This document shows, one piece after another, positions 9,686 to 30,220 of a stretch of 32,000 nt of DNA. Position 1 is the first letter of the stretch. The number at the start of each line of letters is the position of its first letter. Source of the stretch: Bdellovibrionales bacterium (GTDB taxonomy: Bacteria > Bdellovibrionota > Bdellovibrionia > Bdellovibrionales > UBA1609); NCBI GenBank assembly GCA_963692945.1, contig OY843585.1:810001-842000 (forward strand), given 5' to 3'. The notes under the pieces are model-generated. The model searched no databases, had not been told where the DNA came from, and saw only the letters and a list, made by a program, of their open reading frames with translations. Position numbers and translations under genes: made by a program.

Positions 9686-9698
9686 ATTTTTTAGATCA

Positions 9699-10124: not shown

Positions 10125-11425
10125 AAAAAATAATTTTTGGAATCCTTTTTTTTTCCAACCTTTTTTTGGGTGTTCATTCTTCTTTAGCTTGCACGGTTGA
10201 AACACCTGTTCAAGCAGCCATCACTCCTATCATTTTGGAAATTGTTAAAAAATCTGTAGAAGTGGCTAAAAAAGAAAACTGTTCTTCTGTTTTGTTAAAG
10301 ATAAACACTCCAGGTGGAAGTTTGTCTATAACACGTCTTATTGTTCAAGAGATTTTAAATTCTCCTACGCCTTTTCTTTGTTTAGTTTCTCCTTTAGGAG
10401 CTCAAGCGGCAAGTGCTGGAGCTATTATTTTACAAGCTTGCCATATCAGTGGTGCTTTGAAAGGAACCAATTTAGGAGCTTCCACTCCTGTTTTACTAGG
10501 TAAAGACATGGATAAAGAAAGTGATATGAGAAAAAAAGTTATGAATGATACAGTTTCTTTTGTGAAAACTCTTACTCGTTTAAGAAAGAGGAATGAAAAG
10601 TTTGGAGAAGAGATTGTAACTCAAGCTAAATCGGTTACAGCCGAAGAGGCTTTTCGTCTAAAGGCTATAGATTTTGTTGGAAATACGAGTCAGGAGTTTT
10701 TGGAATTTTCAAAAGGGCGATCTGTTGAAATGTCTGGAGGGCAGACATTGAATGTAAAAGTTGGGGAAATCAGACCCATTCCATTAGGGTTTCGTTATAA
10801 TATTTTAACTTTTTTTGCAGATCCTCAAATTTTATATCTTATTTTTTTAGGTAGCCTTATGCTTATTTATTTTGAACTCACTCATCCAGGGATAATGATG
10901 CCTGGTGTTGTGGGAGGTATAGGTCTTATTTTGTCCTTGATAGGTCTCAACACTTTAAGTGTTGTTTGGGGGGCTGTAGCACTTGTTTTTTTAGGTTTAG
11001 CTTTATTTATTTTGGAAATGTTTATTCCAAGTTTTGGAATTTTGGGTGTTGGTGGTATTGTTTCTTTTGTGATAGGAAGTATTTATCTTTTTGATCCTAT
11101 AGAAATGGGAGGTTATCAACTTCCTCTATCGCTTATTTTTATGGTGTCTTTATTTATTGGTCTTCTTATGTTAGGGGCGGCTTACTTGGCTTTCAAAACT
11201 TTAAATCTAAAACGAAATTCTACAGGTATGGGTAATATTGTTGGTGAAACAGGTGAAGTTACAAAAATTTTAGAAGATTCTTCTCCTACAAAAGCTTGGA
11301 TTATTATTCATGGGGAGAACTGGAAGGTTTCTTCTAAAGATAAATTAAAAGTTGGTGACATGGTTAAAGTTCTTAGTTATAAAAAGATGATTTTAAAAGT
11401 AGAAAAAACGGAGGAGGAAGTATGA
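10094..11425 (+). CDS. nfeD: NfeD-family membrane-bound ClpP-class serine protease
   Basis: 443 aa. ClpP-like periplasmic domain (INTPGGS, AASAGA), a multi-TM middle and a C-terminal OB-like NfeD tail (GENWKVSS...GDMVKV). The start may be the ATG at 10112 (MDKLKKIIF...). Its stop overlaps the start of the SPFH gene (ATGA). Confidence 0.8.
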
Positions 11426-12171
11426 GTTGGATTTACATTTTAGTTGGGATTGTTTTTCTTGGTTCTATGATTGTTAAAATTTTACCAGAATGGGAGCGAG
11501 GAGTTGTTCTTCGTTTCGGTCGTTCGGTTGGTGTTCGTGGACCAGGTCTTATACTGTTAATACCGGGAGTGGAAAAAATATATCGTGTAGATACAAGAAC
11601 TGTCACAATGGATATAAAACCTCAAGATGTGATCACCTTTGATAATGTGAGTATGAAAGTCAATGCTGTGATTTATTTTCGTGTAGTGGATACGGAAAAA
11701 TCTATCACACAAGTTGAGGATTATTTGTTTGCTACCAGCCAGTTGGCTCAAACCACTTTACGATCTGTATTGGGGCAATACCATATGGATGACTTGCTTT
11801 CCAGTAGAGATAAAATCAATCAGACCTTGCAAGAGATTTTAGATAAGGCGACAGAACCTTGGGGAATTAAAGTTTCTGTTGTGGAAGTTAAACATATTGA
11901 TTTACCAAAAGAAATGCAAAGGGCTATGGCTCGTCAAGCCGAAGCGGAAAGAGAACGAAGGGCTAAAGTGATTAGTGCTGAGGGAGAATTTCAAAGGGCT
12001 GAAAAATTAAAAGATGCTGCTAAAATTATGGAAGAAAGTCCGTCTGCTTTGCAATTGGCTTATCTTCAAGCTTTGACAGAAGTAACAGGCGAGGGGAAAC
12101 AAACTATAGTTTTTCCTATCCCTATAGATTTATTTAAACCTTTTGTGGATATAATGGAAAAAAAGACTTAG
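11422..12171 (+). CDS. SPFH/band-7 (stomatin/slipin-like) protein
   Basis: 249 aa. N-terminal [40 protein letters not shown]. This is the classic NfeD-stomatin operon partner. Confidence 0.9.
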
Positions 12172-12188
12172 GATTCATTTCTAAAATA

Positions 12189-13310
12189 TCATATATTTTT
12201 TTCAAAAAGACTCTCAAATAAAAAACCTGTTGGTTCATAAGAGGTGATTTTATAAATGCCTTTGAGTAACCTTAAATCGTTGATTTTATCTAGCACAACT
12301 AAAGATTGAAGACTTGAAAAAATAAGTTTTTGGATGGTAGAACTTTGCCATTGAGGAGCTCCCATTTGAGTCAACATTTCTAACTTCCAAAGAGTTTGTT
12401 TGTGATGATTTCCATGAATGGTTCCAATGCTGCCATGATGTCCGCTGGCTAAAGCCAACAAAAGGTCTTTGGCTTCTGGACCACGAACTTCTCCCATAAC
12501 CAATCTGTCGGGTCGTAATCTGAGGCTTTGTTTCAAAAGTTCTTCTTGATTGATGAGAGATAGAGAGTTTTCAGCTGATGTTTGAGTTAAAAGTTTTGTG
12601 CTTACACAATTAGGAAGCACCAATTCATCTGCGTCTTCAATAGTGATGATTCTTTCTGTGGATCCTAGTTCTTGAAGGCAGGCATTCAAAACAGAAGTTT
12701 TTCCAGAATTGGTTGGACCTACAATGAGAAAATTTTGCTTTTCTTTGATGATGTTTTTTAAAATATCAATCGCTGATTCAGGAGCCCAACTTTTATCTTG
12801 CAATTTTTTAAAGTTCCAAATTATTTTAGGGTGTTTTCTCAAGCTGATATGAAAATCTTTTTTGATAAGAGGGGGTCGGATGATATGAATACGAAACTGT
12901 TTCCATCGCCCCTCTGCAAAAGGTTTTTTGTAGTTCACAGTCAGTTGTGATTCGGTTGATAATTTTTCTATAATGTTATTAAAAGTGATATCTGATAAAA
13001 AAGAATCATTTAAGATTTTTAAAAATCCATTGGATTCGAAACAGATATGATCTTTATTATTGATAATGATTTCAGTGATGGAGTCATCATGGATTAGATA
13101 ATTTAAGGGACCATATTCGCAAAATTCAAAAATGATTCTCTGAGCATTTTCTGAAGAGCTATTTTCATGAATGATTTGAGTGATGATTTTTTCTTGTTGA
13201 TCGTCTAACAGATCTCCTTTTGAAGAGAGCGAATTTTGAAAAAGATAAAGTGTATTTTCAAACTCTTCTTTAAGAGAAGGGGAGTGTTTAAAATTATTTT
13301 CTAATTTCAT
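12189..13310 (-). CDS. cpaF: Tad/Flp pilus assembly ATPase (CpaF/TadA, VirB11-superfamily)
   Basis: 373 aa. Walker A GPTNSGKTS, Asp box ITIEDADEL, Walker B region RLRPDRLVMGEVRGPEA, His box GHHGSIGTIHG. Confidence 0.8.
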   Translation of the reverse strand: MKLENNFKHSPSLKEEFENTLYLFQNSLSSKGDLLDDQQEKIITQIIHENSSSENAQRIIFEFCEYGPLNYLIHDDSITEIIINNKDHICFESNGFLKILNDSFLSDITFNNIIEKLSTESQLTVNYKKPFAEGRWKQFRIHIIRPPLIKKDFHISLRKHPKIIWNFKKLQDKSWAPESAIDILKNIIKEKQNFLIVGPTNSGKTSVLNACLQELGSTERIITIEDADELVLPNCVSTKLLTQTSAENSLSLINQEELLKQSLRLRPDRLVMGEVRGPEAKDLLLALASGHHGSIGTIHGNHHKQTLWKLEMLTQMGAPQWQSSTIQKLIFSSLQSLVVLDKINDLRLLKGIYKITSYEPTGFLFESLFEKNI

Positions 13311-14532
13311 GAGATTCTTTTTTTATAATTTTTGGATAAAGCAAAATCATTTGGGATGTTTTGTATCGGTTGTTGTTTCGGACAATAGAGTTTAGAAAAG
13401 AGAAAGAAAAATCAAGTCCTCCTTTTGAGAAAGTCCCTTGTCCTTCTTTTTTTTGATGGTAGATTTTTACAATCTCTTTGTTTTTAACTTTTATTGTGGT
13501 TTGTAAAGTTTGAGATTTTATAGGAGGTGGTTCGTCTTTCATTAAAAGGGAAAGAGGTTCAGATATTTCTCCTTTTATTTTGAGTTCAATGGTTTCTTTT
13601 TTATCCAGTAAAGCTGTGATTCGTAAGTTGAGTCCGTAGGATTTCCATTGGGTGCTGTGTTGTTTTGTTTCACTATTGTATTGTGAAAAAGGAATTTCTC
13701 CTCCATTGTGAATATGAACTTCTTGCCCGTTTTGAGCCAATACGGAAGAGTGATGGATGGTTTTTCCTTTTCCTGATGTTTTCAGTAAGTTTAAAAGTTT
13801 TAACAAAGAGCTGAAAGGTAGAATCTCTTCTTTGCTTGTGTGGTTGTTTCCAAAAAAGAGAGAAGAGGAGTTGTTTGTTTCTAAGAGAGCGATTTCAATT
13901 TCAATAAAAGGAGATTTGGTAAACCACTTTTCATCATTTTGAATGGTAAGTCCAAAGGGAGAAAGTTTTTTCTGATAAAAAGGCGTAAGTGTTTCTTTTG
14001 GTATAAGAGTTAAGGGGAGTTTAGACCATTGTATTTCTGGGGAAGTATGATTTTTAAAAAGAGATTTAAAATAAGCGACAATAACGGGTTCTAAATCTTC
14101 TCCTGGTTGAGCTATAAATTCATATTTGATATTGTGATTTTTTGCGAGTTTTGCAATTTGAACCCAGTCATACATACGATTGAGTTGTCCTGTGATTTGA
14201 ATGATATTCTTTTTTGAAATCATCCAGCTCAAACCCCAAGTTTGTTTCACCTTTTGATCTAATAAAAGAAGATGTTTTTTTATTTTTTCTTTAAGGACAA
14301 TGATTTTGTGATTTTTTGAACCAAGGATGAGGAATGTTTGTCCTTCTTTTTTTCCTAGAAGATGAAGTTGATTGTTATAAGTGGAAATGGATAAAAATTC
14401 TTTATGGCCAACATGAATCACTTTGTCAGAACTTAAGGTGAGTGTCCTTTTTTCCCCTAGAGATAAAAGGATGATTTCTGAATAGCAAGTGAAAGAGTAA
14501 AACAAGCTAAGGCTGGCAAAAAGAAATTTCAT
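13294..14532 (-). CDS. cpaC: Flp pilus secretin (CpaC/RcpA-like)
   Basis: The ORF track gives 13294-14622. I prefer the ATG at 14532, which gives the signal peptide MKFLFASLSLFYSFTCYSE. The N-terminal region matches the pilus-formation pattern (LSLGEKRTLTLSS...LLGKKEGQTFLIL). The C-terminal secretin-like core is VLAQNGQEVHIHNGGEIPF...YGLNLRITALLDKKETIELKIKGEISEP. Confidence 0.7.
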   Translation of the reverse strand: MKFLFASLSLFYSFTCYSEIILLSLGEKRTLTLSSDKVIHVGHKEFLSISTYNNQLHLLGKKEGQTFLILGSKNHKIIVLKEKIKKHLLLLDQKVKQTWGLSWMISKKNIIQITGQLNRMYDWVQIAKLAKNHNIKYEFIAQPGEDLEPVIVAYFKSLFKNHTSPEIQWSKLPLTLIPKETLTPFYQKKLSPFGLTIQNDEKWFTKSPFIEIEIALLETNNSSSLFFGNNHTSKEEILPFSSLLKLLNLLKTSGKGKTIHHSSVLAQNGQEVHIHNGGEIPFSQYNSETKQHSTQWKSYGLNLRITALLDKKETIELKIKGEISEPLSLLMKDEPPPIKSQTLQTTIKVKNKEIVKIYHQKKEGQGTFSKGGLDFSFSFLNSIVRNNNRYKTSQMILLYPKIIKKESHEIRK

Positions 14533-14538
14533 TCTTTT

Positions 14539-14630
14539 TATTTTGCAAAAATAAAGGCTTAAAAAAGCTTGTATTTGCAGGTGTTTTTTAGGTTTTTGTT
14601 GAAATAGACGAGTTTTGTTCATTCTTCGGC
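14539..14630 (-). promoter_or_regulatory. Conserved upstream block of the cpaC-cpaF operon: near-palindrome TATTTTGCAAAAATA (14539-14553) plus a block at 14580-14630 shared with the flp operon upstream region
   Basis: Direct comparison with 22691-22770 (see findings). ttttttaggtttttRttga is almost identical at both sites. Confidence 0.4.
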
Positions 14631-14680
14631 AAAATAAGCTGGGTTTAGATGATTTTAAGCCTTAGAGCTCTCCTAGTCTT

Positions 14681-14710
14681 TAGTCATTATTTTGATTTGT
14701 TTTTTAATAT
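14681..14710 (+). promoter_or_regulatory. Candidate promoter of paralog A (TAGTCA, 18 nt, TAATAT)
   Basis: The same TAGTCATTA element and spacing occur upstream of paralog B (16883-16912). Confidence 0.25.
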
Positions 14711-14750
14711 TTCTAAGGAATTCATCCGATATTTATTCTAGAGGTTTCTA

Positions 14751-16823
14751 TTGAGATTGTTGAAGTTTTTTATATTTTTTCCTTTTTTATTTTTTTATAG
14801 TGAAACATCTTTTTCTTGGGGGCAGATGCAAGGCTATAATCATTACAATTATGTAGGTTATCCTCAAGCCTATTCACCTTATAATCCCATTCCAAGTTGT
14901 CAGTCTCTAGAGTATCGAGCTCTTTTTTCACGACCAGGTTCTTCAAAGACTTCTAAAAAATCAAGGGTTAGTAAATTGGAAAAGAAGATAAAGAGATATG
15001 AAGGTTATTACGATAAATACGAAGACAGATTAGAGAAATATACAAAAAAATTAAAAAACTCTTTAAAGAACAACGCTTTTAAAAAATCAGATGGAACAAG
15101 TGAAAGTAAGGGTACTGTTGCAAAAGCTATAAAAAAGTACATTCAACATAAAAAAGATAAATGGGATTGTGAGAGTGGAAGTGGGAGCTCAAATCTTATG
15201 TTTTATTATCCCAATGTATTTATTTTCTTAAAGGAAGCTCTATTGCCTCAAGCGGAAGCTCAAACTGAAGCTAAAACTGAAGCTAAAGCTAAACCTGTTA
15301 GCTTTGCTGATGACACGGTAAATATCACTGTAGATCATAATTGTGAACCGGGTTCTTTTGAAGATGCAAAAGGAAAATGTGTAAAGTTAACAGAGAAGCA
15401 AAAGTGTATTAAAAAGAAGGGTTACAGTTGGAATCCCTTTGTAGGAGGAGGAGTATGTATTAAAAACCCTGTTCCTAAAACACAAAGACAAAAGTGTATT
15501 GAAAAGAAGGGTCACGGTTGGAATCCAAATACAAGAAGATGTGTTAAAAACCCTGTTCCTAAAACACAAAGACAAAAGTGTGTTGAAAAAGAGGGTCACG
15601 GTTGGAATCCAAATACAAGAAGATGTGTTAAAAACCCTGTTCTTAAAGCCCCTGTTTCTGAAAAACCTGTTCTTGAAAAAGAGGAAAAAACGAGCCTTGC
15701 TGGAGAAACAAGAGAGATCGCTGTAGATCATAATTGTAAACCGGGTTCTTTTGAAGATGAAAATGGTGAGTGTAAAACAGAGGAGCAAATATGTGTTGAA
15801 AAAGAGGGTCACAGTTGGGATCCAGGTATAAAAGCATGTGTTAAAAACCCTGTTCCTAAAACAAAAAGACAAAGGTGTGCCGAAAGAAAGGGTTACAGTT
15901 GGAATCCACATGTAGGAAGAAACGGAGTATGTGTTAAGAGTCCTGTTTCTAAAAAAGCAGATGCATCTAGTGATTCTGTTTCTCCTTTAATTTATGGATA
16001 CGATGGTGATAGTCCTGATGGGAATGCAGATGTAGCAAGTCCAGCAGCAACAGCTCCTCCAAACGAAGACCCTTCTCCTAAAACAAAGATGCAAAAATGT
16101 GCTGAAAAAAGTGGTTACAGTTGGAATCCACATGTAGGAAGAAACGGAGTATGTGTTAAGAACCCTGCTTCAACAGCAGCGGATCCAGTAACACCAACAA
16201 CTCCACCAGAATCAGCTTCAGAAGAACCAGCAGATGCATCCAGTTCAGTAACTCCACCACCAAAATGTAAAAAATCCAAATGGAAAAAAGATGAATATTT
16301 TGGAGAAGAGGGTGAGGTATCCGAGGAGTTTTGTGCAGATTATGCGAAAGATGTAGAAGCTTGTAAATTGGCTCTTAAAGGTATCAAAAGAAATTCTAAT
16401 AAAATAGATAAAAACCGTCGTCATCTTACACATTTTAATAATCAATTATCTAAATTAGAAGATTCAGATGAAGATGAAAGTGAAACAGAAGCTGGTATCA
16501 ATGAACCTTGTTGGGACTGTTTAAAAAAGGTGAGAAAAATAATGAGTCCTACAAGAGGTCAAAAGTTGGGTCATATAGCAACTCTACTTGGAGGGCTTGC
16601 TTTAGGTCATTACGCTTCAAGAGAAGGACGAAGATCTACAAAAGAGGCGAATAGATTAAGAGCTTGGCAGGGTGAACCAGCCTTAGCTAGCAATCATTCC
16701 TTAGCAGGTATAGGTGTAGCTTACCCTTTTATATCTCAAGCGGTGTATGGTTTAACAAATCCTAGGTCTTCTGTTTGTAGTCCATCAGTGAATCCTTATG
16801 GTAGGCAGTTTGGTTGGCGGTAA
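14751..16823 (+). CDS. Secreted repetitive protein, paralog A: Cys-bounded module array plus conserved C-terminal hydrophobic module
   Basis: 690 aa. TTG start with GAGG 7 nt upstream. Signal peptide MRLLKFFIFFPFLFFYSETSFS. Six modules of the form C-x3-G-[YH]-[SG]-W-[ND]-P-x(3-7)-C-[VI]-K-[NS]-P and two of the form VDHNC-[EK]-PGSFED-x3-G-x-C. The C-terminal 63 aa are identical to paralog B. Confidence 0.75.
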   Translation: MRLLKFFIFFPFLFFYSETSFSWGQMQGYNHYNYVGYPQAYSPYNPIPSCQSLEYRALFSRPGSSKTSKKSRVSKLEKKIKRYEGYYDKYEDRLEKYTKKLKNSLKNNAFKKSDGTSESKGTVAKAIKKYIQHKKDKWDCESGSGSSNLMFYYPNVFIFLKEALLPQAEAQTEAKTEAKAKPVSFADDTVNITVDHNCEPGSFEDAKGKCVKLTEKQKCIKKKGYSWNPFVGGGVCIKNPVPKTQRQKCIEKKGHGWNPNTRRCVKNPVPKTQRQKCVEKEGHGWNPNTRRCVKNPVLKAPVSEKPVLEKEEKTSLAGETREIAVDHNCKPGSFEDENGECKTEEQICVEKEGHSWDPGIKACVKNPVPKTKRQRCAERKGYSWNPHVGRNGVCVKSPVSKKADASSDSVSPLIYGYDGDSPDGNADVASPAATAPPNEDPSPKTKMQKCAEKSGYSWNPHVGRNGVCVKNPASTAADPVTPTTPPESASEEPADASSSVTPPPKCKKSKWKKDEYFGEEGEVSEEFCADYAKDVEACKLALKGIKRNSNKIDKNRRHLTHFNNQLSKLEDSDEDESETEAGINEPCWDCLKKVRKIMSPTRGQKLGHIATLLGGLALGHYASREGRRSTKEANRLRAWQGEPALASNHSLAGIGVAYPFISQAVYGLTNPRSSVCSPSVNPYGRQFGWR
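15460..15650 (+). repeat. 84-bp (28-aa) tandem repeat, about 2.2 copies, within paralog A
   Basis: Units start at 15460, 15544 and 15628 (ttaaaaaccctgttcctaaaacacaaagacaaaagtgt...). A further 48-bp identical stretch links about 15891-15938 and 16113-16160. Confidence 0.9.
16572..16760 (+). repeat. 189-bp block 100 percent identical to 18232-18420 (copy in paralog A)
   Basis: Compared base by base: catatagcaactctacttggagggcttgc...ggtgtatggtttaacaaat in both genes. The flanks diverge immediately. Confidence 0.95.
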
Positions 16824-16882
16824 AGCAAAATTTTTTCTTAGTAGAAGGGTTTTAATTTATTCAATCCTTAAGTCTTGTTTTT

Positions 16883-16912
16883 TAGTCATTAAATGGAGTT
16901 ATTTTTTATTTA
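16883..16912 (+). promoter_or_regulatory. Candidate promoter of paralog B (TAGTCA, 18 nt, TATTTA)
   Basis: Shared TAGTCATTA element with 14681-14689. AAGGA RBS 7 nt before the ATG at 16978. Confidence 0.25.
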
Positions 16913-16977
16913 AAGTTTCGGATTATAGAAAAAATTTATATACTATTTAAAGAGCTTTTAACCTTAAGGAATAAATT

Positions 16978-19458
16978 ATGAAATATATATTGATTCTCAT
17001 CTTCTTCTTTCCTTTTTTATCTTTTGCTAATTACTGTTTTGATCCTATGGAGCAGGCGATATTATTTGGAAATCAGCAACAAGGAGAGGATGATAGCTTA
17101 CAAGGTCAGATAAGACAGAAGAAGAGAGATTTAAAATCTAAAGAAGAAGAGATTAAAAGTAAAGAAGATAAGGAAGAGAAAGAAATAAACGGAAAATCTG
17201 ATTGTGGTAGAGTCATTAGTACACGTTGTGGTATCGAAAAGTTGAGAGGAAAACTATGGAATTCATTGGATGATGATAAGGTTTTTCCACCAGAGGGAGG
17301 AAATCGTACTGATAATGACAAGAGGGATATTACTAAGAAAATATTAGAATATATGGAATCTAAACATAAAGACGAGCCAAAAGAAAGTTGGAATGATGTA
17401 AATAAAGATTCCTGTAATCCTAATGATAATCTTGATTATACTGGTCCTGTAACTTCTACTTCTACTGGACCTAGTTCTGTAACTTCTGCTTCTGCTACTC
17501 CTGCTACTGCTACCCCTGTAACTTCTAATCCTGCTACTGCTACCCCTGTAACTTCTAATCCTGCTACTGCTACCCCTGTAACTTCTAATCCTGCTACTTC
17601 TAATCCTGTAACTTCTACTTCTACTGATGATACTGCCGATTCTGATTCTAATGATGATGGCGATACCATTATTTTTATGAATCCAAATGAGTTACAAGCT
17701 ATAGATTCTTTAAATATTTCCATTCAAAATTTATTAAATAGTTTTAAAAATCCAAATCAGACAGTTGCGACTTACTTAGAATTGGGATGGAATTTTTTAA
17801 TTCCTATTGCTGAAGCAACAGCTGTTGATCCAGGTTTTCCTAATATAAACACATTGAAGCAATGTCCAGCTTGGGAAAATAATAATGCTATTGTTACAGG
17901 TGATGGTGAGATTGAGATAGACGAATTTTGTGACAAATATGGACGAGAGGATGATGATAGTAAGGTTCAAGAGTGTAAAGATTCTTTGAAAAGCTTAGAT
18001 GAAAAATATGAAAAGATAGCTAAATATAGAAAAGAGCTGAAAAAATTTAGGAATCAAGAAGATAAATTACATATTGAAATTGATGAGTTGCTGGAAAAGT
18101 TAGAAGATGAGGAGGATGATGAAGAAACAGAAGCCAGTGCTGGTTGTATTGATTGTATTAGCGATAGTAGATTAGAGACATTAAAAAAATATCGTGAAAT
18201 GAATAAGCTTACATGGGGTCAGAAAGCTGGGCATATAGCAACTCTACTTGGAGGGCTTGCTTTAGGTCATTACGCTTCAAGAGAAGGACGAAGATCTACA
18301 AAAGAGGCGAATAGATTAAGAGCTTGGCAGGGTGAACCAGCCTTAGCTAGCAATCATTCCTTAGCAGGTATAGGTGTAGCTTACCCTTTTATATCTCAAG
18401 CGGTGTATGGTTTAACAAATGGAAATAGACGTAATTATGTTTGTACTGGAGGTATGAATCCTTACGCAGGTGCTTATCAAAACCCTTACGGTAGGGCTTA
18501 TCAAGGGGGTTTTCCAGGTGCTTATCCAGGAGTATTTCCTGGAGCAGGATTTGGTGCAGGATTTGGTGGCGGAGCTCACTTAGGTTTAGGAGGTCTTGGC
18601 GGAATGCCGTTTGGACCAGGATTTGGAGCAGGATTTGGTGGCGGAGCTCACTTAGGTTTAGGAGGTCTTGGCGGAATGCCGTTTGGACCAGGATTTGGTG
18701 GCAGAGCTCACTTAAGTTTAGGAGGTCTTGGCGGAATGCCGTTTGGACCAGGATTTGGCGGTGGATTTGGCGGAAGCCCATTTGGTGGCGGATTTGGTGG
18801 CGGAGCTCACTTAGGTTTAGGAGGTCTTGGCGGAATGCCGTTTGGACCAGGATTTGGAGCAGGAGCTCACTTAGGTATAGGAAATCCCTATGGCGGATTT
18901 GGCGGAAACCCATATGGAGGTTTTGGCGGAAACCCATATGGCGGATTTGGAGCAGGAGCTCACTTAGGTTTAGGAAACCCCTATGGTGGATTTGGCGGAA
19001 GCCCATATGGAGCGGGAGGTCCTTTCAATGGAGGTATAAATCCTTATGCTCAATATCAAGCTCAAGTCGCTGCTCAACGATCTCAAGCTTATCAAGCCCA
19101 ACTGGCTCAACAACAATATCAAGCCCAACTGGCTCAACAACAGCTACAAATTCAAATGGACGCCCAAAAAGCTTGGTTGGAAAAGCAACAATCTATTCAG
19201 CAAGAAAGAGTAAGAAAACAACAAGTTATTTCTGGTCTTACTCAAGAGATGTATAAAATTCAACAACAAATCAATTTGGTGGCTACAACTGGAGTGGGTG
19301 GCTCTTCTTCTATTCTAGGAGCTAGTTCAGGAAGTGTAAATGCTGGGTTTCAATTAGGAACATCTGGTGCTACAGCTCCTTCTGCAGGGACTCTCTCAAC
19401 ACCAAATACAAATATAAATACAAACCCTGGTGATCTACCTGTTATACAAGCTCGGTAG
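16978..19458 (+). CDS. Secreted repetitive protein, paralog B: T/S/P linker, conserved hydrophobic module, Gly-rich array, Gln-rich coiled coil
   Basis: 826 aa. Signal peptide MKYILILIFFFPFLSFANY. (TSNPATATPV)n linker. The shared scaffold with A is EFC..Y...ECK...LED-acidic-ETEA..C-x-DC...GQK-x-GH plus the identical 63 aa. Downstream come GAHLGLGGLGGMPFGPGFG and NPYGGFGG arrays, then YQAQLAQQQ repeats. Confidence 0.8.
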   Translation: MKYILILIFFFPFLSFANYCFDPMEQAILFGNQQQGEDDSLQGQIRQKKRDLKSKEEEIKSKEDKEEKEINGKSDCGRVISTRCGIEKLRGKLWNSLDDDKVFPPEGGNRTDNDKRDITKKILEYMESKHKDEPKESWNDVNKDSCNPNDNLDYTGPVTSTSTGPSSVTSASATPATATPVTSNPATATPVTSNPATATPVTSNPATSNPVTSTSTDDTADSDSNDDGDTIIFMNPNELQAIDSLNISIQNLLNSFKNPNQTVATYLELGWNFLIPIAEATAVDPGFPNINTLKQCPAWENNNAIVTGDGEIEIDEFCDKYGREDDDSKVQECKDSLKSLDEKYEKIAKYRKELKKFRNQEDKLHIEIDELLEKLEDEEDDEETEASAGCIDCISDSRLETLKKYREMNKLTWGQKAGHIATLLGGLALGHYASREGRRSTKEANRLRAWQGEPALASNHSLAGIGVAYPFISQAVYGLTNGNRRNYVCTGGMNPYAGAYQNPYGRAYQGGFPGAYPGVFPGAGFGAGFGGGAHLGLGGLGGMPFGPGFGAGFGGGAHLGLGGLGGMPFGPGFGGRAHLSLGGLGGMPFGPGFGGGFGGSPFGGGFGGGAHLGLGGLGGMPFGPGFGAGAHLGIGNPYGGFGGNPYGGFGGNPYGGFGAGAHLGLGNPYGGFGGSPYGAGGPFNGGINPYAQYQAQVAAQRSQAYQAQLAQQQYQAQLAQQQLQIQMDAQKAWLEKQQSIQQERVRKQQVISGLTQEMYKIQQQINLVATTGVGGSSSILGASSGSVNAGFQLGTSGATAPSAGTLSTPNTNINTNPGDLPVIQAR
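17501..17610 (+). repeat. 30-bp tandem repeat (acttctaatcctgctactgctacccctgta) encoding TSNPATATPV
   Basis: Identical full copies at 17521-17550 and 17551-17580, with partial copies on both sides. Confidence 0.9.
18232..18420 (+). repeat. 189-bp block 100 percent identical to 16572-16760 (copy in paralog B)
   Basis: See the partner entry. Confidence 0.95.
18541..19010 (+). repeat. Imperfect tandem array (periods of roughly 60-100 bp) encoding Gly-rich units
   Basis: The core ggagctcacttaggtttaggaggtcttggcggaatgccgtttggaccaggatttgg recurs starting near 18571, 18643, 18703 and 18801. Shorter NPYGGFGG units follow to about 19010. Confidence 0.9.
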
Positions 19459-19460
19459 AA

Positions 19461-20489
19461 CTAATAAAAGATTTTTGAAGAGGAAGAGGTTTTATTATCT
19501 ATTGTAAGAGATAATAAAATTCCTGTTGTTAAAAGAGCTCCTCCAACAATAAGCCATGTAGATGTATCTTTTTTCAAAAAGTTAAATTTTTTCTGTTTGT
19601 TTTTATAAGAGGTCTTAGTGAGAACCTCTTTATAATTTTTGTTATCAAAGGTTTTAGAGAAAGATTCTTTATAGCCTTTTTGTTTCCATAGAGGTTTTTG
19701 ATTTTCACAATCTTTATTGTAAAAAATTTTTATATTGTTTTTCATCCATTCCGATTTCACTTTTAAAGTTTTGCAATATCCTAAAGTGAGAGGATTTGTT
19801 TTTATAGATTGAGTCATCAAATAAGAAATAGGAACAACTCTTGTCCAAGAAGTGTGAGAGGAACTCAAAGCTGTTATACGATAGGAGGATTCTGGAACTT
19901 GGATTGTTTTATTTTTCAAAGAAACCCGTTTTCCATTGATGAGAATGATTTCATGGTGAGGAAAGAGTTTTTTTAAAGGAAGAGATAAAAGAGTTTGTTG
20001 ATTTTGAATCTCTTCTAGTTTTTGAAGTAAAGGAGGTGGAAATAAATTATAATCTGGATGATCTTTTGTAAATTTAGACATGGTGAATTGACTTGCTAAC
20101 AGGAGCAAAGCTTGTTTTTTAGGAATGTCTTTTTCACTTTGAGATCGTCTTAAAAAAGAATAAAGAATCATTCTTCTTTGTTCTTTATCCCAATCGGCTG
20201 AATGACTTAAAGAAGTGATTTTTTCAAAGACTTCTAGTGCTAACTGTATTTCACCAGATAAGTAATGCTCTTGAGCTTGTAAAATCAAATCTTTAAGTTG
20301 GAATTTTTTTGTTTCCTCTCTTTTTAAACTTAATAAATGTTTTCCATAACTAATATGATTTGAACCTAAAGAAGTGAGGTGACTTGTAAAGCCAAAGAAA
20401 GGGCTTTTTATATCTTTGACCCAAATATCAGATTGTGATGGTTGAGAAGCAAAGATAAGATAAAAAATAAAATACTTTAATGGATTCAT
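19461..20489 (-). CDS. Hypothetical exported protein with a TPR-like segment and C-terminal TM; possible Tad accessory
   Basis: 342 aa. Signal peptide MNPLKYFIFYLIFASQPSQS, a TPR-like stretch AQEHYLSGEIQLALEVFEKI and a C-terminal TM WLIVGGALLTTGILLSLTI. It is the last gene of the flp operon by position. Confidence 0.4.
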   Translation of the reverse strand: MNPLKYFIFYLIFASQPSQSDIWVKDIKSPFFGFTSHLTSLGSNHISYGKHLLSLKREETKKFQLKDLILQAQEHYLSGEIQLALEVFEKITSLSHSADWDKEQRRMILYSFLRRSQSEKDIPKKQALLLLASQFTMSKFTKDHPDYNLFPPPLLQKLEEIQNQQTLLSLPLKKLFPHHEIILINGKRVSLKNKTIQVPESSYRITALSSSHTSWTRVVPISYLMTQSIKTNPLTLGYCKTLKVKSEWMKNNIKIFYNKDCENQKPLWKQKGYKESFSKTFDNKNYKEVLTKTSYKNKQKKFNFLKKDTSTWLIVGGALLTTGILLSLTIDNKTSSSSKIFY

Positions 20490-20954
20490 TTAAAAATTTT
20501 CCTCAATAAGAGTTATAGGTTTTCTTACTCTTTTTTTATGTATTTGTGAACCTTGTTTTTCAGGATTTTGAATAACAGCATAAAATGGTGGAGAATGTTC
20601 AAAAAGTTTTTTTACTTCTTTTTCAGGTATTAAAGCCACAAAAAGGCTATCTTCTGTTTCTGGAGGTAAAATTTTAATGAATTTTGCAATTTGTTCTTGA
20701 GGCAAATCTGTTTTTATGGAGTAGGAATAGAGATCTACAACGCCATGGGAGCCTATGAGATTGATAATGTCTTTCCCATTTGAAATATCTATAGGTATTA
20801 AAACAAAGTCTTTTGGGACTAGAGAATCTATAGATGTTGTTGTAGTTTCTTCTGTATTTTTAAGAAAAGATAAAAAATAAGAGATGACCGATAACACTAA
20901 AACCACTCCTAACATAATAAAATAAGATGCGTATGTATTTAAAATGTACTTCAT
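20490..20954 (-). CDS. Short CpaB/RcpC-like protein (N-terminal TM plus beta-clip-like segment)
   Basis: 154 aa. TM segment FIMLGVVLVLSVISYFL. DFVLIPIDISNGKDIINLIGSHGVVDLY resembles the RcpC/CpaB C-domain pattern. No SAF domain is apparent. Confidence 0.3.
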   Translation of the reverse strand: MKYILNTYASYFIMLGVVLVLSVISYFLSFLKNTEETTTTSIDSLVPKDFVLIPIDISNGKDIINLIGSHGVVDLYSYSIKTDLPQEQIAKFIKILPPETEDSLFVALIPEKEVKKLFEHSPPFYAVIQNPEKQGSQIHKKRVRKPITLIEENF

Positions 20955-21247
20955 AGATTAGGCCTTAATTTTTTTTGACTGAAAGGCCAATTTGTTTTTT
21001 TATAGGAATGATTTTTTTTAGAATGCCAGTTTGTTTTTTTATAGGAGCGACTCTTGTAATTCTTTTTAAATCTATGTTTATTGATTTCTTTATTTGCATA
21101 CTCTTGAAAGAGATTGACAGTCAATAAGAAACCCAAAAGACAACAGATGAAAAATAAGCTTTCCATAAAAATTTGACCTTGCTGTGATATTAGTGAAACA
21201 GTCTTTCTTTCCATTGAGTGGGACTCCTTTCTAAAGTGGCTATACAT
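20951..21247 (-). CDS. TadE-like pseudopilin with Lys-rich tail
   Basis: QQG-QIFMES followed by a hydrophobic helix fits G-XXXX-E prepilin-like processing. The probable start is the ATG at 21214 (MERKTV...). The tail contains a SYKKTNW duplication. Confidence 0.4.
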   Translation of the reverse strand: MYSHFRKESHSMERKTVSLISQQGQIFMESLFFICCLLGFLLTVNLFQEYANKEINKHRFKKNYKSRSYKKTNWHSKKNHSYKKTNWPFSQKKLRPNL

Positions 21248-21915
21248 TGATATTTTGAAAATTTAGATTTATACAAGGGAAAAAAAGGATTCATTGTCCA
21301 AGAGAATATGGTTTTTTGTTGATGAGAAAAATGGGGTAGAGGATGATAAGTTGTCGCCTCTTTACTGAGTTTTCTTTTAGAAAGAGCAAGAGGTTTTTTA
21401 AAAGAACTTATTTCTGTAACCGATTGAATGTAAGGTTTATTCAAAGATTGTTTTAGATTTTTAAGAGAGTGTTTTTTTACAGTTTGACTTTTCTTTAATA
21501 GACTATTTTGTTGATGAGATAAGATTTTTTGTTGAAATTTAATGATAGCAATTTGCATTTTTAATGCGGCTACACCTTTTGTAAGACCTAAAGCCAAAGA
21601 AGATTCTAATATTTTTCTTTTTTTATGTAGAGTTAGGACTTTTTTATTTAAAAATAAAAGTTTATGTAAAAGAATCTTTAATTGTTTTTGAGTTGATAGG
21701 TTTTCTAAGAGACAAACTTTTTGAGAGAAAGTGATATTTTTAATCCCTAGACTCATTATGGAAAGTCCTAATAAACCTGTCATCATTAAGCCAAAAAAAG
21801 GTATAAGTAACACAAGAACAAATCCTTTCTGGTTGGTTATAAATTTTTGAGATTGAGATGGCTTTTTATAAGAATAACTTTTTTGAAAAATTCCCATTCT
21901 ATAGACCCTTTCCAT
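21190..21915 (-). CDS. TadG-like pilus assembly protein (short)
   Basis: 241 aa. N-terminal NQKGFVLVLLIPFFGLMMTGLLGLSIMSL resembles the TadE/G-like N-terminal helix. The start may be the ATG at 21897. Confidence 0.35.
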   Translation of the reverse strand: MERVYRMGIFQKSYSYKKPSQSQKFITNQKGFVLVLLIPFFGLMMTGLLGLSIMSLGIKNITFSQKVCLLENLSTQKQLKILLHKLLFLNKKVLTLHKKRKILESSLALGLTKGVAALKMQIAIIKFQQKILSHQQNSLLKKSQTVKKHSLKNLKQSLNKPYIQSVTEISSFKKPLALSKRKLSKEATTYHPLPHFSHQQKTIFSWTMNPFFPLYKSKFSKYQCIATLERSPTQWKERLFH

Positions 21916-22199
21916 TCGTTTTGAAAATTCGTTAGTTTCAACTCCTTAAAAGATCCTGTTTTATTTAGTCTTTTTATATTTTTTAAAGTTTGTTGTTTGC
22001 ATACAGTCATTGATTTTTTTTCTGCTCTACAAATAAGACCTTGATAGAGGCTATGTTCTATCCATAACTTATTTGCAAATATCCAAAATAAAATCACAGA
22101 AAAATTTATGGAAATAATTAACGCAAAACTAAATAGAATCATTTCAATAACACCTTGTCCTTTTTTGTTTTTTATAAACTTATCAGTTTGAATTTTCAC
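21837..22199 (-). CDS. TadE-like pseudopilin
   Basis: 120 aa. KKG-QGVIEMILFSFALIISINF has the G-XXXX-E motif plus a hydrophobic helix. Confidence 0.45.
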   Translation of the reverse strand: MKIQTDKFIKNKKGQGVIEMILFSFALIISINFSVILFWIFANKLWIEHSLYQGLICRAEKKSMTVCKQQTLKNIKRLNKTGSFKELKLTNFQNEWKGSIEWEFFKKVILIKSHLNLKNL

Positions 22200-22666
22200 A
22201 GCCTTTCTCTTCTATTTATTTGTTTTTTTGATTTTTTCTTTTTTTCTTTGGAGCTAGCCGCTCCATTCATGAAATTACTAAGGTCACTTTTTTGAAAATC
22301 TTTTTTGTTTACACTTTGAGTTTTGGCTTTTTGTGATCGTCCTTGAAGTGCATAAATGGCATTTGCAAAACGAGCTTTGACCGTTTGATTAAGAGTTCTC
22401 ATAATTCCAATGGTTGCAACTCCCATAAGAGCAATGAGTATGAGGTATTCAATCAAACCCTGTCCTTTTTGGTTTATTTTTTTTGAAAAAGAAAGGTTTT
22501 TGAAAAAAGAAAAATTTTTGAAAAGATAATAGGCTCTTAAAATTTTATCCATGACAAGAAAAAGAGTCTTATAAGTTTTTTTTATTATGAGAGAAAGAGC
22601 CTTATCCTTTCTTTTTTTTATAAAGAAAAGGATTGAATTTGTTTTTGTGTTGAAAGAAAAATGCAT
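22196..22666 (-). CDS. flp: Flp-family prepilin, atypically long (68-aa leader, Lys-rich C-tail)
   Basis: KG-QGLIEYLILIALMGVATIGI matches the Flp G-XXXX-EY motif. AGGAGG lies 4 nt upstream of the ATG at 22666. The next in-frame ATG (22552) has no SD. Confidence 0.65.
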   Translation of the reverse strand: MHFSFNTKTNSILFFIKKRKDKALSLIIKKTYKTLFLVMDKILRAYYLFKNFSFFKNLSFSKKINQKGQGLIEYLILIALMGVATIGIMRTLNQTVKARFANAIYALQGRSQKAKTQSVNKKDFQKSDLSNFMNGAASSKEKKKKSKKQINRRERL

Positions 22667-22690
22667 AAAACCTCCTAAGTTTTAAAACTC

Positions 22691-22770
22691 TATTTTGCAA
22701 AATAAAAAGATAAAACACTGGGTTTTTTTAGGTTTTTATTGAGAAAATTGTAGGCTTGTTCGGAATTCGT
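22691..22770 (-). promoter_or_regulatory. Conserved upstream block of the flp operon: perfect 14-bp palindrome TATTTTGCAAAATA (22691-22704) plus a block at 22720-22770 shared with the cpaC upstream region
   Basis: Direct comparison with 14539-14630. Confidence 0.4.
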
Positions 22771-23032
22771 CAGTTTTTAACAAAATCAAGAAGAGGATTT
22801 GATTTGAGTCTTTTCTCTTTTGTCTTTGATATAGACTTTTAAAAGACTTTTATAGGCTTCTTCTCTTAGATTGTATTTTTTTATGATCTTGTAGAAGATT
22901 TCTATCTCTTTAAGTTGTAGAACTTTTTTTCTTGTTAAACTTTCAGATTGAACCATAGTCCATCTATATATTGATTGGATTTGGAAGTCTATAAAAAAGG
23001 ATTTTGAGTTGAATTAATATTTAGAAAAGGCT

Positions 23033-23920
23033 ATGTTGGAAGAGTTTTTTATTATGATCCATTTAGACGGTAAATCTTTAAGTTTTTCTATTCTTGAGAG
23101 TTTAAAATCTCGGGTTGTAGAGTTTCAAAAAAAACACTCTGTAGTTCCGGGTTTGGCTGTTCTTTTAGTCGGCGATGATTCGGCAAGCCATGTGTATGTT
23201 CGTCAAAAATTGAAGCAATGTTCAAATATAGGTTTTCATTCTAAGTTGAAAAATTTTCCAGCCAATGTAAAGATTTCGGATTTAAAAAAACAGGTGGAAG
23301 AGTTCAATAAAGATTCTCAGTTTCATGGAGTGCTCATTCAACTGCCTTTACCCTCTTCATTAAAAGAAGAGGAGGTTTTATCTTGTTTAGACCCTGCAAA
23401 AGATGTGGATGGTTTGACTTTAGAAAATAGAGCTCTTTTATGGTCTAATAGACCGCGAGTTGTTCCTTGCACTCCTTTAGGTATTATAAAACTTTTAAAA
23501 CATTATAAAATTTCCATAGAAGGTCAAAAAGCTGTTGTTGTAGGGCGTAGTCAAATTGTTGGTCTTCCTATGGTTCAGCAACTTCTTTATCATCAAGCCA
23601 CTGTGACGGTTTGCCATTCACGAACTAAAAATTTGAAAGAAGAATGTTCTCAAGCAGATATTGTTATTGCTTGTGCAGGGAAGAAATCTTTGCTTTCTAA
23701 AAAGGATTTTAAAAAAGAGGCTGTTGTTGTGGATGTAGGAATCCATAGAGTGGTTCAAGATTCTAAAACCTATCTCGTTGGGGATGTGGATTCAGAGGGT
23801 TTAGAAAATCATTTGAAAGCTTTATCACCTGTGCCAGGAGGTGTTGGCCCTATGACAATTGCCATGCTTTTAGAAAATACTTTTCATTTGGCGGAGCAAT
23901 TTATGAAGGAGAGTTTATGA
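23033..23920 (+). CDS. folD: Bifunctional methylenetetrahydrofolate dehydrogenase/cyclohydrolase
   Basis: 295 aa. Motifs: GLAVLLVGDDSASHVYV, VLIQLPLP, VVVGRSQIVGLPM, PVPGGVGPMTIAMLLENT. The start may be the ATG at 23054 (MIHLDGK). Confidence 0.9.
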   Translation: MLEEFFIMIHLDGKSLSFSILESLKSRVVEFQKKHSVVPGLAVLLVGDDSASHVYVRQKLKQCSNIGFHSKLKNFPANVKISDLKKQVEEFNKDSQFHGVLIQLPLPSSLKEEEVLSCLDPAKDVDGLTLENRALLWSNRPRVVPCTPLGIIKLLKHYKISIEGQKAVVVGRSQIVGLPMVQQLLYHQATVTVCHSRTKNLKEECSQADIVIACAGKKSLLSKKDFKKEAVVVDVGIHRVVQDSKTYLVGDVDSEGLENHLKALSPVPGGVGPMTIAMLLENTFHLAEQFMKESL

Positions 23921-25005
23921 ACAAGACGGCTTTGTATGAATCTCATATTCAACTAGGTGCAAAAATGATTTCTTTTGCAGGTTGGAAGATGCCTTTTTCT
24001 TACTCTAGTCCTAGAGAGGAGCATCTCAATGTCCGAAAGCATGGAGGGCTTTTTGATGTCTCTCATATGGGGGAAATTCGTATCAAGGGTAAGGATAGCC
24101 TCGCTTTTTTAGAAACTTTAGTTCCTAGTGATGTTCAATCTTTAACTCAAGGAAAAGCACAATACTCTGTTTTTTGTAATGAAAAAGGTGGGTTGATTGA
24201 TGATTTAATTATTTACTGTTTCGCGAAAGCCGAGGATTATCTTTTATGTGTTAATGCAGCTACAAAAGATAAGGATAAACAATGGTTGGAGTCTCATAGA
24301 AATCATCAAGAAGTGGAAATTCAAGATGAGAGTTCTTCTTGGGGAATGATAGCTGTTCAAGGTCCAACATCTATAAAACTTTGTCAGGAAGTTTTTCCTT
24401 CTATTGATTTTTATTCTATCAAAAAATTTCATTTTGAATTTCAAGAAGGTTGTATTTTTTCTAGGACAGGCTATACGGGAGAAGAGGGATTTGAAATTTA
24501 TATCCCTTGGCAACAGTGTGCGGAGGATTGGAAGAGATTTTTAAAAAAAAGTTCTGATTTTTCTATATTACCCATAGGTTTAGGAGCAAGAGATACTCTA
24601 AGACTTGAAATGGCCTATCTTTTATCGGGTCAGGATTTTGATGAATCTTATAGTCTTTTAGAATCGGGCTTATCTTGGGTGATGAAAAATCCTAAAAGTT
24701 ATATAGGGAAAGAGGCACTTTTAAAACAAAAAGAAGGGTCACAAAATGACATTCAACAGCGATTAAAGGGGTTTATTATGGAAGAACCTTTAGGTGTTCC
24801 GAGGAAGGGTTGTCCTATATTATCAGAAACGGGTGTATCTATTGGAAAAGTGACAAGTGGTGCTAAATCTCCGAGTCTTGAGAAAATGATAGGATTAGCT
24901 TATATAAAAAGTCAGGAAAAAAATTGTCTTGTGGATATTAGAGGTTCTAAAGTAAAGGCTCATATTGTATCAAGACCCATTTTAAAAAAGGAGAATAGAA
25001 AATGA
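23917..25005 (+). CDS. gcvT: Glycine cleavage system aminomethyltransferase (T protein)
   Basis: 362 aa. Motifs: TALYESHIQLGAKMISFAGWKMP, GLFDVSHMGE, TGYTGEEGFEI, GLGARDTLRLEM. Its start overlaps the folD stop. Confidence 0.9.
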   Translation: MNKTALYESHIQLGAKMISFAGWKMPFSYSSPREEHLNVRKHGGLFDVSHMGEIRIKGKDSLAFLETLVPSDVQSLTQGKAQYSVFCNEKGGLIDDLIIYCFAKAEDYLLCVNAATKDKDKQWLESHRNHQEVEIQDESSSWGMIAVQGPTSIKLCQEVFPSIDFYSIKKFHFEFQEGCIFSRTGYTGEEGFEIYIPWQQCAEDWKRFLKKSSDFSILPIGLGARDTLRLEMAYLLSGQDFDESYSLLESGLSWVMKNPKSYIGKEALLKQKEGSQNDIQQRLKGFIMEEPLGVPRKGCPILSETGVSIGKVTSGAKSPSLEKMIGLAYIKSQEKNCLVDIRGSKVKAHIVSRPILKKENRK

Positions 25006-25427: not shown

Positions 25428-25494
25428 TAGTTTTTGTGAATGAGTGGAGTTGGGATGACTTACTATTTTCAAAAGAGTTAAGAAATTAGAATAA

Positions 25495-25581
25495 GCCCAC
25501 GTGGCGGAACTGGCAGACGCGCTAGACTTAGGATCTAGTACCTTTTTTGGTGTGGGGGTTCAACTCCCTCCGTGGGCACCA
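25495..25581 (+). tRNA. tRNA-Leu (anticodon UAG), type II with long variable arm, CCA encoded
   Basis: Folded by hand. Acceptor gcccacg/cgtgggc, D-arm gcg-gaactggcaga-cgc, anticodon stem ctaga/tctag with loop cTTAGga, variable arm tacc-tttttt-ggtg, T-arm ggggg-ttcaact-ccctc, then a-cca. Confidence 0.9.
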
Positions 25582-25631
25582 TTTTTAGAAAAACTCCTTT
25601 AAATACAAGGCTTTCATGTCTTCAAAATGGC

Positions 25632-25653
25632 TTTTGGCGTGATTTTGGCGTGA
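25632..25653. repeat. 11-bp direct tandem repeat (ttttggcgtga x2) between the tRNA 3' end and the integrase stop
   Basis: Read directly. Candidate integrase/Xis arm-type site. Confidence 0.6.
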
Positions 25654-30209: not shown

Positions 30210-30220
30210 AACATCCTCCT

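Follow-up and report, generated by a model that had tools for sequence, protein, structure and literature searches.

A hypervariable pair of paralogous proteins, predicted to be exported, encoded beside a reduced Tad-like machine in uncultured Bdellovibrionales bacteria

Introduction

Many bacteria adhere or prey by means of Tad pili, and the determinants of the target specificity of these pili are only starting to emerge. A stretch of 32,000 nucleotides (nt) from a Bdellovibrionales bacterium (assembly GCA_963692945.1, contig OY843585.1, positions 810,001 to 842,000; hereafter the window) raises the question of which function is served by two head-to-tail plus-strand genes, A and B, that lie between a minus-strand ATPase and secretin gene pair and a minus-strand block ending in a Flp-like pilin. 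As outlined here, A and B are members of a previously undescribed two-type family of exported, Cys-containing proteins with helical and disordered parts, and this family and a reduced Tad-like machine constitute one conserved gene module. The pair is hypervariable at the strain level, while one module shared by the two proteins is homogenised within genomes. The genes may encode an exported complex that acts as contact factor for the Tad-like machine, be it at the surface, in association with the pilus or in secreted form, a reading that is held here with moderate confidence.

Two paralogous proteins with unrelated inserts

The list of open reading frames (ORFs) bears out what an earlier inspection of the DNA (the sequence-only reading) had reported, namely two adjacent plus-strand genes flanked on both sides by minus-strand Tad-type genes (Table 1). 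Protein A (690 amino acids (aa), TTG start) and protein B (826 aa) begin with the similar signal peptides noticed by that reading, and both leaders are of the Sec type (A, MRLLKFFIFFPFLFF..SFS; B, MKYILILIFFFPFLSFA). The G-XXXX-E motif of class III (prepilin) leaders was sought in both proteins and is absent. Its absence and the Sec leaders rule out A and B as type IV pilins or pseudopilins, and the absence of a lipobox rules them out as lipoproteins. In BLASTP, A520-687 aligns with B309-500 at 54% identity (E=3e-50), and a hidden Markov model (HMM) of this scaffold matches A at E=2e-62. The C-proximal scaffold that had been proposed is therefore real, although it comprises about 190 aa instead of the earlier figure of about 150. 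The run of identical residues described within it also exists and is 64 aa long (GHIATLL...YGLTN), which corrects the earlier count of 63; the corresponding 192 nt contain one mismatch. The N-region said to be common to both proteins shows insignificant similarity in BLASTP (E=0.26) but is recovered at the profile level, the HMM of the type-A N-domain matching A at E=3e-32 and B at E=2e-10.

The centres of both proteins are indeed different low-complexity cassettes, as confirmed with the help of a tandem-repeat search (TRF). The centre of A contains six C-x6-W-x6-C hairpin repeats, the copy number of which differs between strains. B carries ATPVTSNPA repeats, Gly-rich repeats of 20-24 aa and a Gln-rich helix, in the order signal peptide, N-domain, Thr/Ser/Pro repeats, mid-protein scaffold, Gly-rich repeats, Gln-rich long helix and tail. 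The idea of a conserved scaffold with exchangeable inserts holds in that A and B are paralogues with common N- and C-domains and unrelated inserts; the 64-aa identity, however, reflects gene conversion and not deep conservation (see below).

An unannotated family with two types

No match to A or B was found in Pfam, NCBIfam, the PDB sequences or the PDB folds: the profile search of PDB sequences gave nothing below E=0.015, and Foldseek against PDB returned generic helical hairpins (MexA, VanR) at E>1 only. Pfam searches of 42 type-A and 37 type-B relatives revealed no consistent domain (DUF5874 in three, otherwise sporadic low-complexity matches). This agrees with the earlier impression that the proteins belong to no characterised family. 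An exhaustive HMM search of 1.84 billion cluster representatives (50% identity) yielded 126 representatives, 105 of them at E<1e-10. All 126 are unnamed, and the ten that were looked up come from metagenome assemblies (European Nucleotide Archive (ENA); P0007 also NCBI). Other routes were less productive. A word-indexed homology search returned nothing for the A scaffold and one fragment for a 25-sequence profile, this index evidently missing the family; a profile scan of genome contigs with a 7-sequence alignment gave two loci; scans of metagenome-contig collections gave no relatives; and an exact look-up of protein B gave no record. All members sampled so far fall within one clade of uncultured bacteria that carry the label Bdellovibrionales.

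The position of the scaffold, C-terminal in 76 representatives and mid-protein in 50, defines types A and B, respectively. Type-A proteins consist of a signal peptide, the N-domain, often an [LI][LI]PxAEA segment, Cys-rich repeats and the C-terminal scaffold. Type-B proteins have a signal peptide, the same N-domain, few Cys, the scaffold in the middle and then about 250-320 aa of Gly-rich repeats and Gln-rich helix, often ending in [DE]LP[VI]IxxR. Both types share the motif C[LYH][HS]P[LVI][EQ]xAAL right after the leader, and the type-A N-domain HMM matches 42 of the 46 type-B relatives searched. Six Cys are invariant or near-invariant across the scaffold, the consensus of which reads C..W...F...G.V...FC..YA....CK.AL(coil)TEA..LC.DCL...PT..Q..GN.L....G.GLS..G.. 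and directly continues as EGRRAQ..AN.LR..QG...SLAGAS.G.PFI..G.YGL......CSP..PY. Upstream of the scaffold the two types differ in median net charge per 100 aa (+3.0 in type A versus -3.2 in type B; P=1e-6) and in median Cys number (27 versus 2).

The [LI][LI]PxAEA segment follows a hydrophobic stretch and recurs in many family members, being LLPQAEA in A (15255-15275, aa 169-175) and LIPIAEA in B (17800-17825, aa 275-283). The segment looks like an AxA site for signal peptidase within the chain, at which the proteins could be processed.

Linkage to Tad-like genes

Thirteen loci were compared, the window and 12 further loci of relatives (L001-L012, with L004, accession ERZ22155170, the sister strain), in which membership was assigned by the scaffold HMM and neighbour homology by BLASTP. 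The sequence-only reading had proposed to look for synteny with tad genes in relatives, and the answer is positive, also where the outer flanks differ: family genes are linked to the ATPase and secretin genes, to the Flp/pseudopilin block or to both in 10 of the 13 loci. The window, L004, L005, L002, L008 and L009 have the ATPase and secretin genes divergently upstream and the pilin block convergently downstream. Only the ATPase and secretin genes are present in L006, L007 and L010, and only the pilin block in L012, while L001, L003 and L011 have neither half within 10 kb. Outer flanks are unrelated in L007 (S8 peptidase/GMP synthase), L009 (Lon/ABC permease), L010 (AspRS/transketolase), L008 and L012, and the association is therefore not merely general synteny. 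Within the loci, type A precedes type B in all seven cases with two or more linked copies. L002, L010 and L012 have a single gene with a B-type tail; that of L002 combines an N-part closest to type-A N-domains with a tail closest to type-B tails.

A historical origin of this arrangement has to be considered. A and B could be surface or matrix proteins independent of Tad, such as a coat of the envelope or S-layer type or a biofilm matrix, and owe their position to low rearrangement in small genomes. In the window, L004 and L005, synteny reaches from uvrC to gcvH, far past the Tad genes, and most of it is also found in L002 (SPFH to gcvH) and L006 (without the pilin block); in addition, three of the 13 loci are unlinked and the low-complexity Gly/Gln/Thr-rich composition recalls that of matrix proteins. 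However, the linkage outlives full replacement of the outer flanks (L007-L010 and L012), and when the Tad halves separate the family gene stays with the remaining half. A Tad-independent coat is thus considered improbable.

Two of the loci have peculiarities of their own. In L003, a T2SSF platform-like gene lies about 8 kb from the family gene, and the family genes (8343-10732 of the ENA contig) are split into several short ORFs, probably by frameshift errors of long-read assembly or by pseudogenisation. In L007, two ankyrin genes lie between the secretin and the family genes.

Strain-level hypervariability

The sister strain L004 is collinear with the window from 6915 to 25584 at a background DNA identity of 98-100%, and the ATPase and secretin are 100% identical. 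A and B, by contrast, contain mosaic blocks of 64-85% identity. Nei-Gojobori counts for the window versus L004 give A an overall ratio of nonsynonymous to synonymous differences per site (pN/pS) of 1.8 (P=0.019). In A aa 61-170 there are 41 nonsynonymous and 0 synonymous differences (binomial P=1.6e-4), while A aa 591-690 is under purifying selection (pN/pS 0.16). In B, aa 41-235 and 296-417 show a nonsynonymous divergence (dN) of about 0.29 and a synonymous divergence (dS) of 0.16-0.37, and blocks of the N-terminal half share about 75-84% DNA identity with L004; these stretches look like imported divergent alleles. The 64-aa module and all B sequence after it have a pN/pS of 0.11-0.16, and the values of the housekeeping neighbours uvrC, folD and gcvT and of the genes for the 342- and 154-aa proteins of the pilin block are 0.11-0.34. 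A and B as targets of a diversity-generating retroelement are ruled out: the window contains no reverse transcriptase domain, the spectrum of changes is not adenine-specific, and there is no template repeat, that is, no second copy of the variable stretch of A.

This distribution of variability bears on a structural role. A and B might be accessories within the envelope, acting as a tether, secretin-assembly factor or periplasmic gel in a role like that of FimV, TsaP or the pilotins. The tight, divergent linkage of family genes to the secretin gene would suit such a role, as would the predicted long helices and disordered Gly-rich regions and the near-invariance of the module and the C-terminal half of B between strains. 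Yet a pN/pS above 1 and imported alleles are unexpected of machine parts while secretin and ATPase show 100% identity; neither LysM nor TPR nor a lipobox was found in A, B or the relatives scanned; and L001 and L011 have family copies away from any secretin. The hypervariability argues against a purely structural anchor, and a role as envelope accessory is regarded as unlikely.

Two further observations concern the neighbours in this comparison. The block of NfeD, SPFH, ATPase and secretin genes (10251-14500), which abuts the hypervariable genes, has 100.0% DNA identity to L004 in surroundings of 98-99%, which suggests a recent transfer or sweep of this segment. The 241-aa TadG-like pseudopilin (21190-21915, minus strand) has a dN/dS of 1.12, and the Flp pilin has 0 nonsynonymous changes.

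Concerted evolution of the 64-aa module

Within a genome, the modules of A and B are 100% identical in the window, 97% in L004, 83% in L005 (DNA 88-98%) and 77% in L007. Across genomes, module identity is no higher than 31-58%, also for genomes whose ATPases share 59-83%, which places the module among the fastest-diverging parts of the family between species. The first half of the scaffold, compared between A and B within a genome, is 26-42% identical. Recurrent gene conversion with sharp boundaries, or else co-selection, acting on a fast-evolving module would be consistent with this pattern. The two copies form direct 192-bp repeats 1,660 bp apart, and recombination between them would yield an A-head/B-tail fusion such as that in L002.

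Predicted structure and hydropathy

The sequence-only reading had described the identical residues as two hydrophobic helices separated by a loop. The AlphaFold model of the scaffold (predicted local distance difference test (pLDDT) 77) is an all-helical domain, in which a long coil is followed by a short helix behind the CxxC, then by a single long helix and a final one. The helical character thus stands, but the basic "loop" is taken into a single long helix together with the first hydrophobic stretch, and hydrophobicity is only moderate: among 124 family members, the median best-17 Kyte-Doolittle values are 1.28 for helix 1 and 0.82 for helix 2, and the helices of A and B reach 0.8-1.2. A membrane hairpin was taken to require two segments of about 19 or more residues with a Kyte-Doolittle mean of at least about 1.6, a value attained by 7% of helix-1 and 0% of helix-2 segments. 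An integral inner-membrane or classical transmembrane hairpin is therefore ruled out by hydropathy in the window proteins and across the family. About 40% of the helix residues are Gly, Ala or Ser. The model of whole B has a confident N-domain, scaffold and Gln-rich helix, and a disordered Thr/Ser/Pro region, Gly-rich region and tail.

Helices this rich in small residues and of intermediate hydrophobicity would be compatible with membrane-active effectors, in which the helical hairpin inserts into a target membrane in glycine-zipper style and the variable N-part picks the target. The signal peptides and scaffold Cys, which predict secreted, disulfide-bearing proteins, and the hypervariable N-parts fit this picture as well. 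Nevertheless, hydrophobicity stays under the usual transmembrane thresholds, no toxin or immunity domain and no conserved small immunity-like neighbour gene were found, and the conserved pairing of A and B with opposite charge would be left unexplained. Such an effector function has a low probability.

Regulatory elements

The attack-phase FliA (σ28) consensus of Bdellovibrio bacteriovorus is TTAAG-N16-CCGATA (PMC3627812). The promoter of the TAD operon depends on FliA in B. bacteriovorus as well as in B. exovorus, and Flp pilins are required for predation in B. bacteriovorus (PMC5430801). In the window, TTAA-N16-19-CCGATA has one match, before A, where 0.23 are expected by chance. In the other loci, five of six matches lie directly upstream of the first family gene, and perfect TTAAG-N16/17-CCGATAAG sites occur in the distant loci L010 and L012. 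By motif, a σ28-like site is thus conserved before the family genes. A generic scan for σ70 promoters and terminators was uninformative, its counts being at shuffle level.

An exact 17-nt repeat marks the heads of both minus-strand operons (secretin-ATPase and Flp). Its core TTTTGCAAAA is found at the same places in L004 and also in the secretin/A region of L006, which makes the repeat a candidate shared operator. Upstream of B (about 16925-16945) there is a conserved AAAAAATTTATATACTA element, also present in L005, with a -10-like TATACT; this suggests that B has its own σ70-type promoter besides read-through from A. The element TAAA-N12-(T)CCGAA upstream of the Flp gene is conserved in the window (22740-22790, minus strand), L005 and L009; its spacing does not fit a σ28 promoter, and none is claimed.

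The surrounding locus

The genes next to the pair (Table 1) include a TadA/CpaF-family ATPase, which matches TIGR03819 (TadA family) at E=7e-53, below the curated cut-off, and an RcpA/CpaC-type secretin. On the other side, six minus-strand genes converge on B. Among them are TadE/F-like pseudopilins, with KGQxxIE-related motifs in the 120- and 98-aa genes, and a Flp pilin of which the G-XXXX-EY motif (KGQGLIEY) is kept in six loci. The Flp pilin matches PF04964 only at E=1.6e-3; it is 96% identical in the sister strain and 61-76% in other genomes (76% in the most distant locus), and is the best-conserved gene of the pilin block. The earlier designation as a Tad/Flp pilus locus is therefore right as to ATPase, secretin, Flp pilin and pseudopilins, but the platform, TadZ and peptidase genes are absent from the window, and the locus is therefore a partial Tad-like set. 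TadB/C, TadZ and prepilin peptidase were not found in the Tad-linked loci examined either. By analogy with B. bacteriovorus, in which the hit locus encodes a partial type IVb set and tadC and extra cpaF genes lie elsewhere in the genome (PMC3818213), these components may be encoded elsewhere.

The window has a G+C content of about 32%, an Rfam scan found tRNA only, and the closest named relatives are two metagenome-assembled genomes labelled "Bdellovibrionales bacterium". Collinearity with L004 ends at the 3' end of a tRNA-Leu (25495-25581). Beyond it, G+C drops to 24-25% (25495-32000 region) and there are genes for a tyrosine integrase (25686-26825), an HTH_17 excisionase-like protein (26812-27096) and a TraG/TrwB-like coupling ATPase (27724-29247), all on the minus strand; the region looks like a strain-specific integrative, possibly conjugative, element. 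Ankyrin-repeat proteins are encoded in the window (1910-5411; 356 and 762 aa), in L006 (15195-17439) and in L007 (4463-6033), which hints at a eukaryote-associated lifestyle of this Bdellovibrio-like clade.

Table 1. Positions of genes, protein parts and DNA elements of the A-B locus in the window.
Feature	Position	Strand	Basis
TadA/CpaF/VirB11-clade secretion ATPase, 373 aa	12189..13310	-	PF00437, E=1e-30
Secretin, likely start 14532 (MKFLFASL...), divergent from A	13294..14622	-	PF00263, E=1e-15
Exact 17-nt repeat CTTTTTATTTTGCAAAA with palindromic core TTTTGCAAAA, next to the start of the secretin gene, between the divergent secretin and A genes	14534..14550	+	
σ28 (FliA)-type promoter-like site TTAAT-N17-CCGATA, 20 nt upstream of A start	14704..14731	+	
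ORF A, type-A member: signal peptide, N-domain, Cys-hairpin repeats, C-terminal scaffold	14751..16823	+	
A signal peptide MRLLKFFIFFPFLFFYSETSFS, Sec/signal peptidase I type; no lipobox, no prepilin motif	14751..14816	+	inspection, hydropathy
A N-domain, hypervariable Lys-rich coiled-coil part, aa 61-170	14931..15260	+	strain comparison
A central cassette: six C-x(6-7)-W-x(5-9)-C repeats, 84-nt period, Pro/Ser/Thr linkers	15342..16154	+	
A scaffold: six Cys, coiled coil, acidic ETEA run, CxxC, two small-residue-rich helices	16248..16820	+	
64-aa module, A copy (direct repeat 1)	16569..16760	+	
ORF B, type-B member, from signal peptide and N-domain to conserved tail ...DLPVIQAR	16978..19458	+	
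B N-terminal half: N-domain, ATPVTSNPA repeats, first scaffold half	17029..18228	+	
64-aa module, B copy (direct repeat 2), 1 mismatch to A copy	18229..18420	+	
B Gly-rich repeat region, 44% Gly, predicted disordered	18478..19041	+	
B Gln-rich long helix, aa 689-770, pLDDT about 70-80, conserved in type B	19042..19287	+	
Conserved 342-aa exported protein, C-terminal hydrophobic segment, convergent on B, end of pilin-block operon	19461..20489	-	
Conserved 154-aa bitopic protein	20490..20954	-	
Three pseudopilin-like genes (98, 241, 120 aa), N-termini KGQ-x-IE / QKGF-hydrophobic	20951..22199	-	
Flp-type pilin, motif KGQGLIEYLILIALMGVATIG (G-XXXX-EY)	22196..22666	-	
Second copy of 17-nt repeat, 27 nt upstream of Flp pilin ORF	22693..22709	-	

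Comparison with known systems

TcpF of the Vibrio cholerae TCP system and CofJ of the CFA/III system of enterotoxigenic Escherichia coli are exoproteins encoded in type IVb pilus operons and secreted through the pilus machine (PMC10120004, PMC9565799, PMC6048534). Like A and B, they are Sec-exported non-pilins encoded in a type IVb-class pilus cluster; leaving the cell via pilus machine and secretin, they are the closest functional model for A and B as putative cargo of the Tad-like machine. A and B share with them the cluster location and the Sec signal peptide but no similarity in sequence or fold (Pfam, PDB sequence, Foldseek against PDB), and TcpF and CofJ are single globular proteins, whereas A and B are a paralogous pair with repeats, coiled coils and a gene-converted module. 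Closer in lineage, Bd0108 and Bd0109 of the B. bacteriovorus hit locus are a lineage-specific periplasmic or secreted pair beside a partial type IVb/Tad set, the partners interacting and one of them being intrinsically disordered (PMC3818213, PMC4267844). However, Bd0109 is an RHS/YD-repeat protein and Bd0108 a disordered protein of 101 aa, whereas A and B are paralogues of each other; moreover, Bd0108 and Bd0109 share one operon with the ATPase and secretin genes, from which A and B diverge. No PF05593 RHS repeat was found in A, B or the 42 type-A and 37 type-B relatives, which rules out A and B as Bd0109-like proteins.

With TcpF, CofJ and the pair Bd0108/Bd0109, the best functional precedents include the Tips of the Kil Tad pili of the predator Myxococcus xanthus, which carry variable, interchangeable domains proposed to set target recognition (PMC12075869). 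These Tips are minor pilins with prepilin leaders, whereas A and B have ordinary Sec signal peptides without G-XXXX-E. The pIII protein of filamentous phages is Sec-exported and disulfide-bonded, with Gly-rich linkers between binding domains and a hydrophobic C-proximal segment by which it is built into the filament tip, the filament being extruded through a secretin. The likeness to A and B is an analogy without sequence similarity, and an inovirus pI/pIV module is ruled out because the ATPase here belongs to the T2SSE/TadA and not to the Zot/pI family. The MAT proteins of B. bacteriovorus reportedly form trimeric fibres with variable C-terminal tips, and we know of no report that links them to Tad genes. 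They belong to a predator family with many copies, in which the parts for assembly are conserved and those for target binding are variable and chimeric (PMC10769870). No homology between them and A or B was detected, a negative that rests on the lack of matches in Pfam, NCBIfam and PDB and not on a direct comparison with MAT sequences. By sequence comparison, A and B appear homologous to none of the precedents that could be tested, the system itself being of a known kind.

A possible contact factor of the Tad-like machine

In the favoured reading, A and B would be transcribed as a unit from the σ28-type promoter, its activity being judged from the motif, which would link the pair with the regulon (motile or "attack-phase") under which the Tad genes of Bdellovibrio are expressed. 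Because of their signal peptides and the six (near-)invariant scaffold Cys, both proteins are predicted to leave the cytoplasm by Sec and to form disulfides as they fold outside it. Their opposite charges and the identity that gene conversion maintains suggest that they associate, probably via the scaffold coiled coil and the small-residue-rich helical hairpin, and opposite charge, matched module and fixed gene order together suggest that they act together. Since the neighbourhood is conserved, the Tad-like secretin or pilus would be the route or the site by which they arrive at the cell surface, as an exoprotein complex that is associated with the pilus or depends on the secretin. There, the N-terminal coil and central cassettes, diversified by selection and recombination, would contact the target, be it prey, host or kin; a contact role is suggested by hypervariability that is unexpected of a housekeeping machine part, in combination with the conserved neighbourhood.

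Several points weigh against a contact factor of this kind. The dN/dS values come from one strain pair and from low-complexity sequence, and multi-nucleotide conversion from an unsampled paralogue could mimic selection. The loci were hand-picked across the E-value range, and are not a random sample, with four of them fairly close relatives, and L001, L003 and L011 have no Tad gene within 10 kb of the family genes. TadB/TadC (T2SSF), TadZ/CpaE and the TadV/CpaA peptidase were sought in the 32-kb window and not found, so that pilus assembly or secretion by this partial machine is putative. Finally, the AlphaFold models are elongated helices with a predicted template modelling score (pTM) of 0.37-0.38 and are uninformative on any interface.

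A more far-reaching version, which is considered doubtful, regards A and B as a heteromeric, self-diversifying contact or tip complex of the Tad-like machine, in which the 192-bp module would be both assembly interface and recombination pivot. The module would swap the variable heads and would collapse and re-expand the locus between the two-gene and the fused one-gene state (L002). In an uncultured Bdellovibrio-like lineage that may be associated with eukaryotes, the outcome might be variation in host range, prey range or antigens.

Conclusion

At minimum, a new protein family with two recognisable domains is defined. The protein pair of this locus is lineage-specific, has genetic ties to a minimal Tad-like machine and evolves far faster than that machine. 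If the pair is a contact or cargo element, it would represent a new way to functionalise a Tad-type secretin or pilus, and a natural case of an assembly interface kept matched by gene conversion. If true, this would also provide a handle on the host or prey interaction of uncultured Bdellovibrio relatives that encode ankyrin-repeat proteins.

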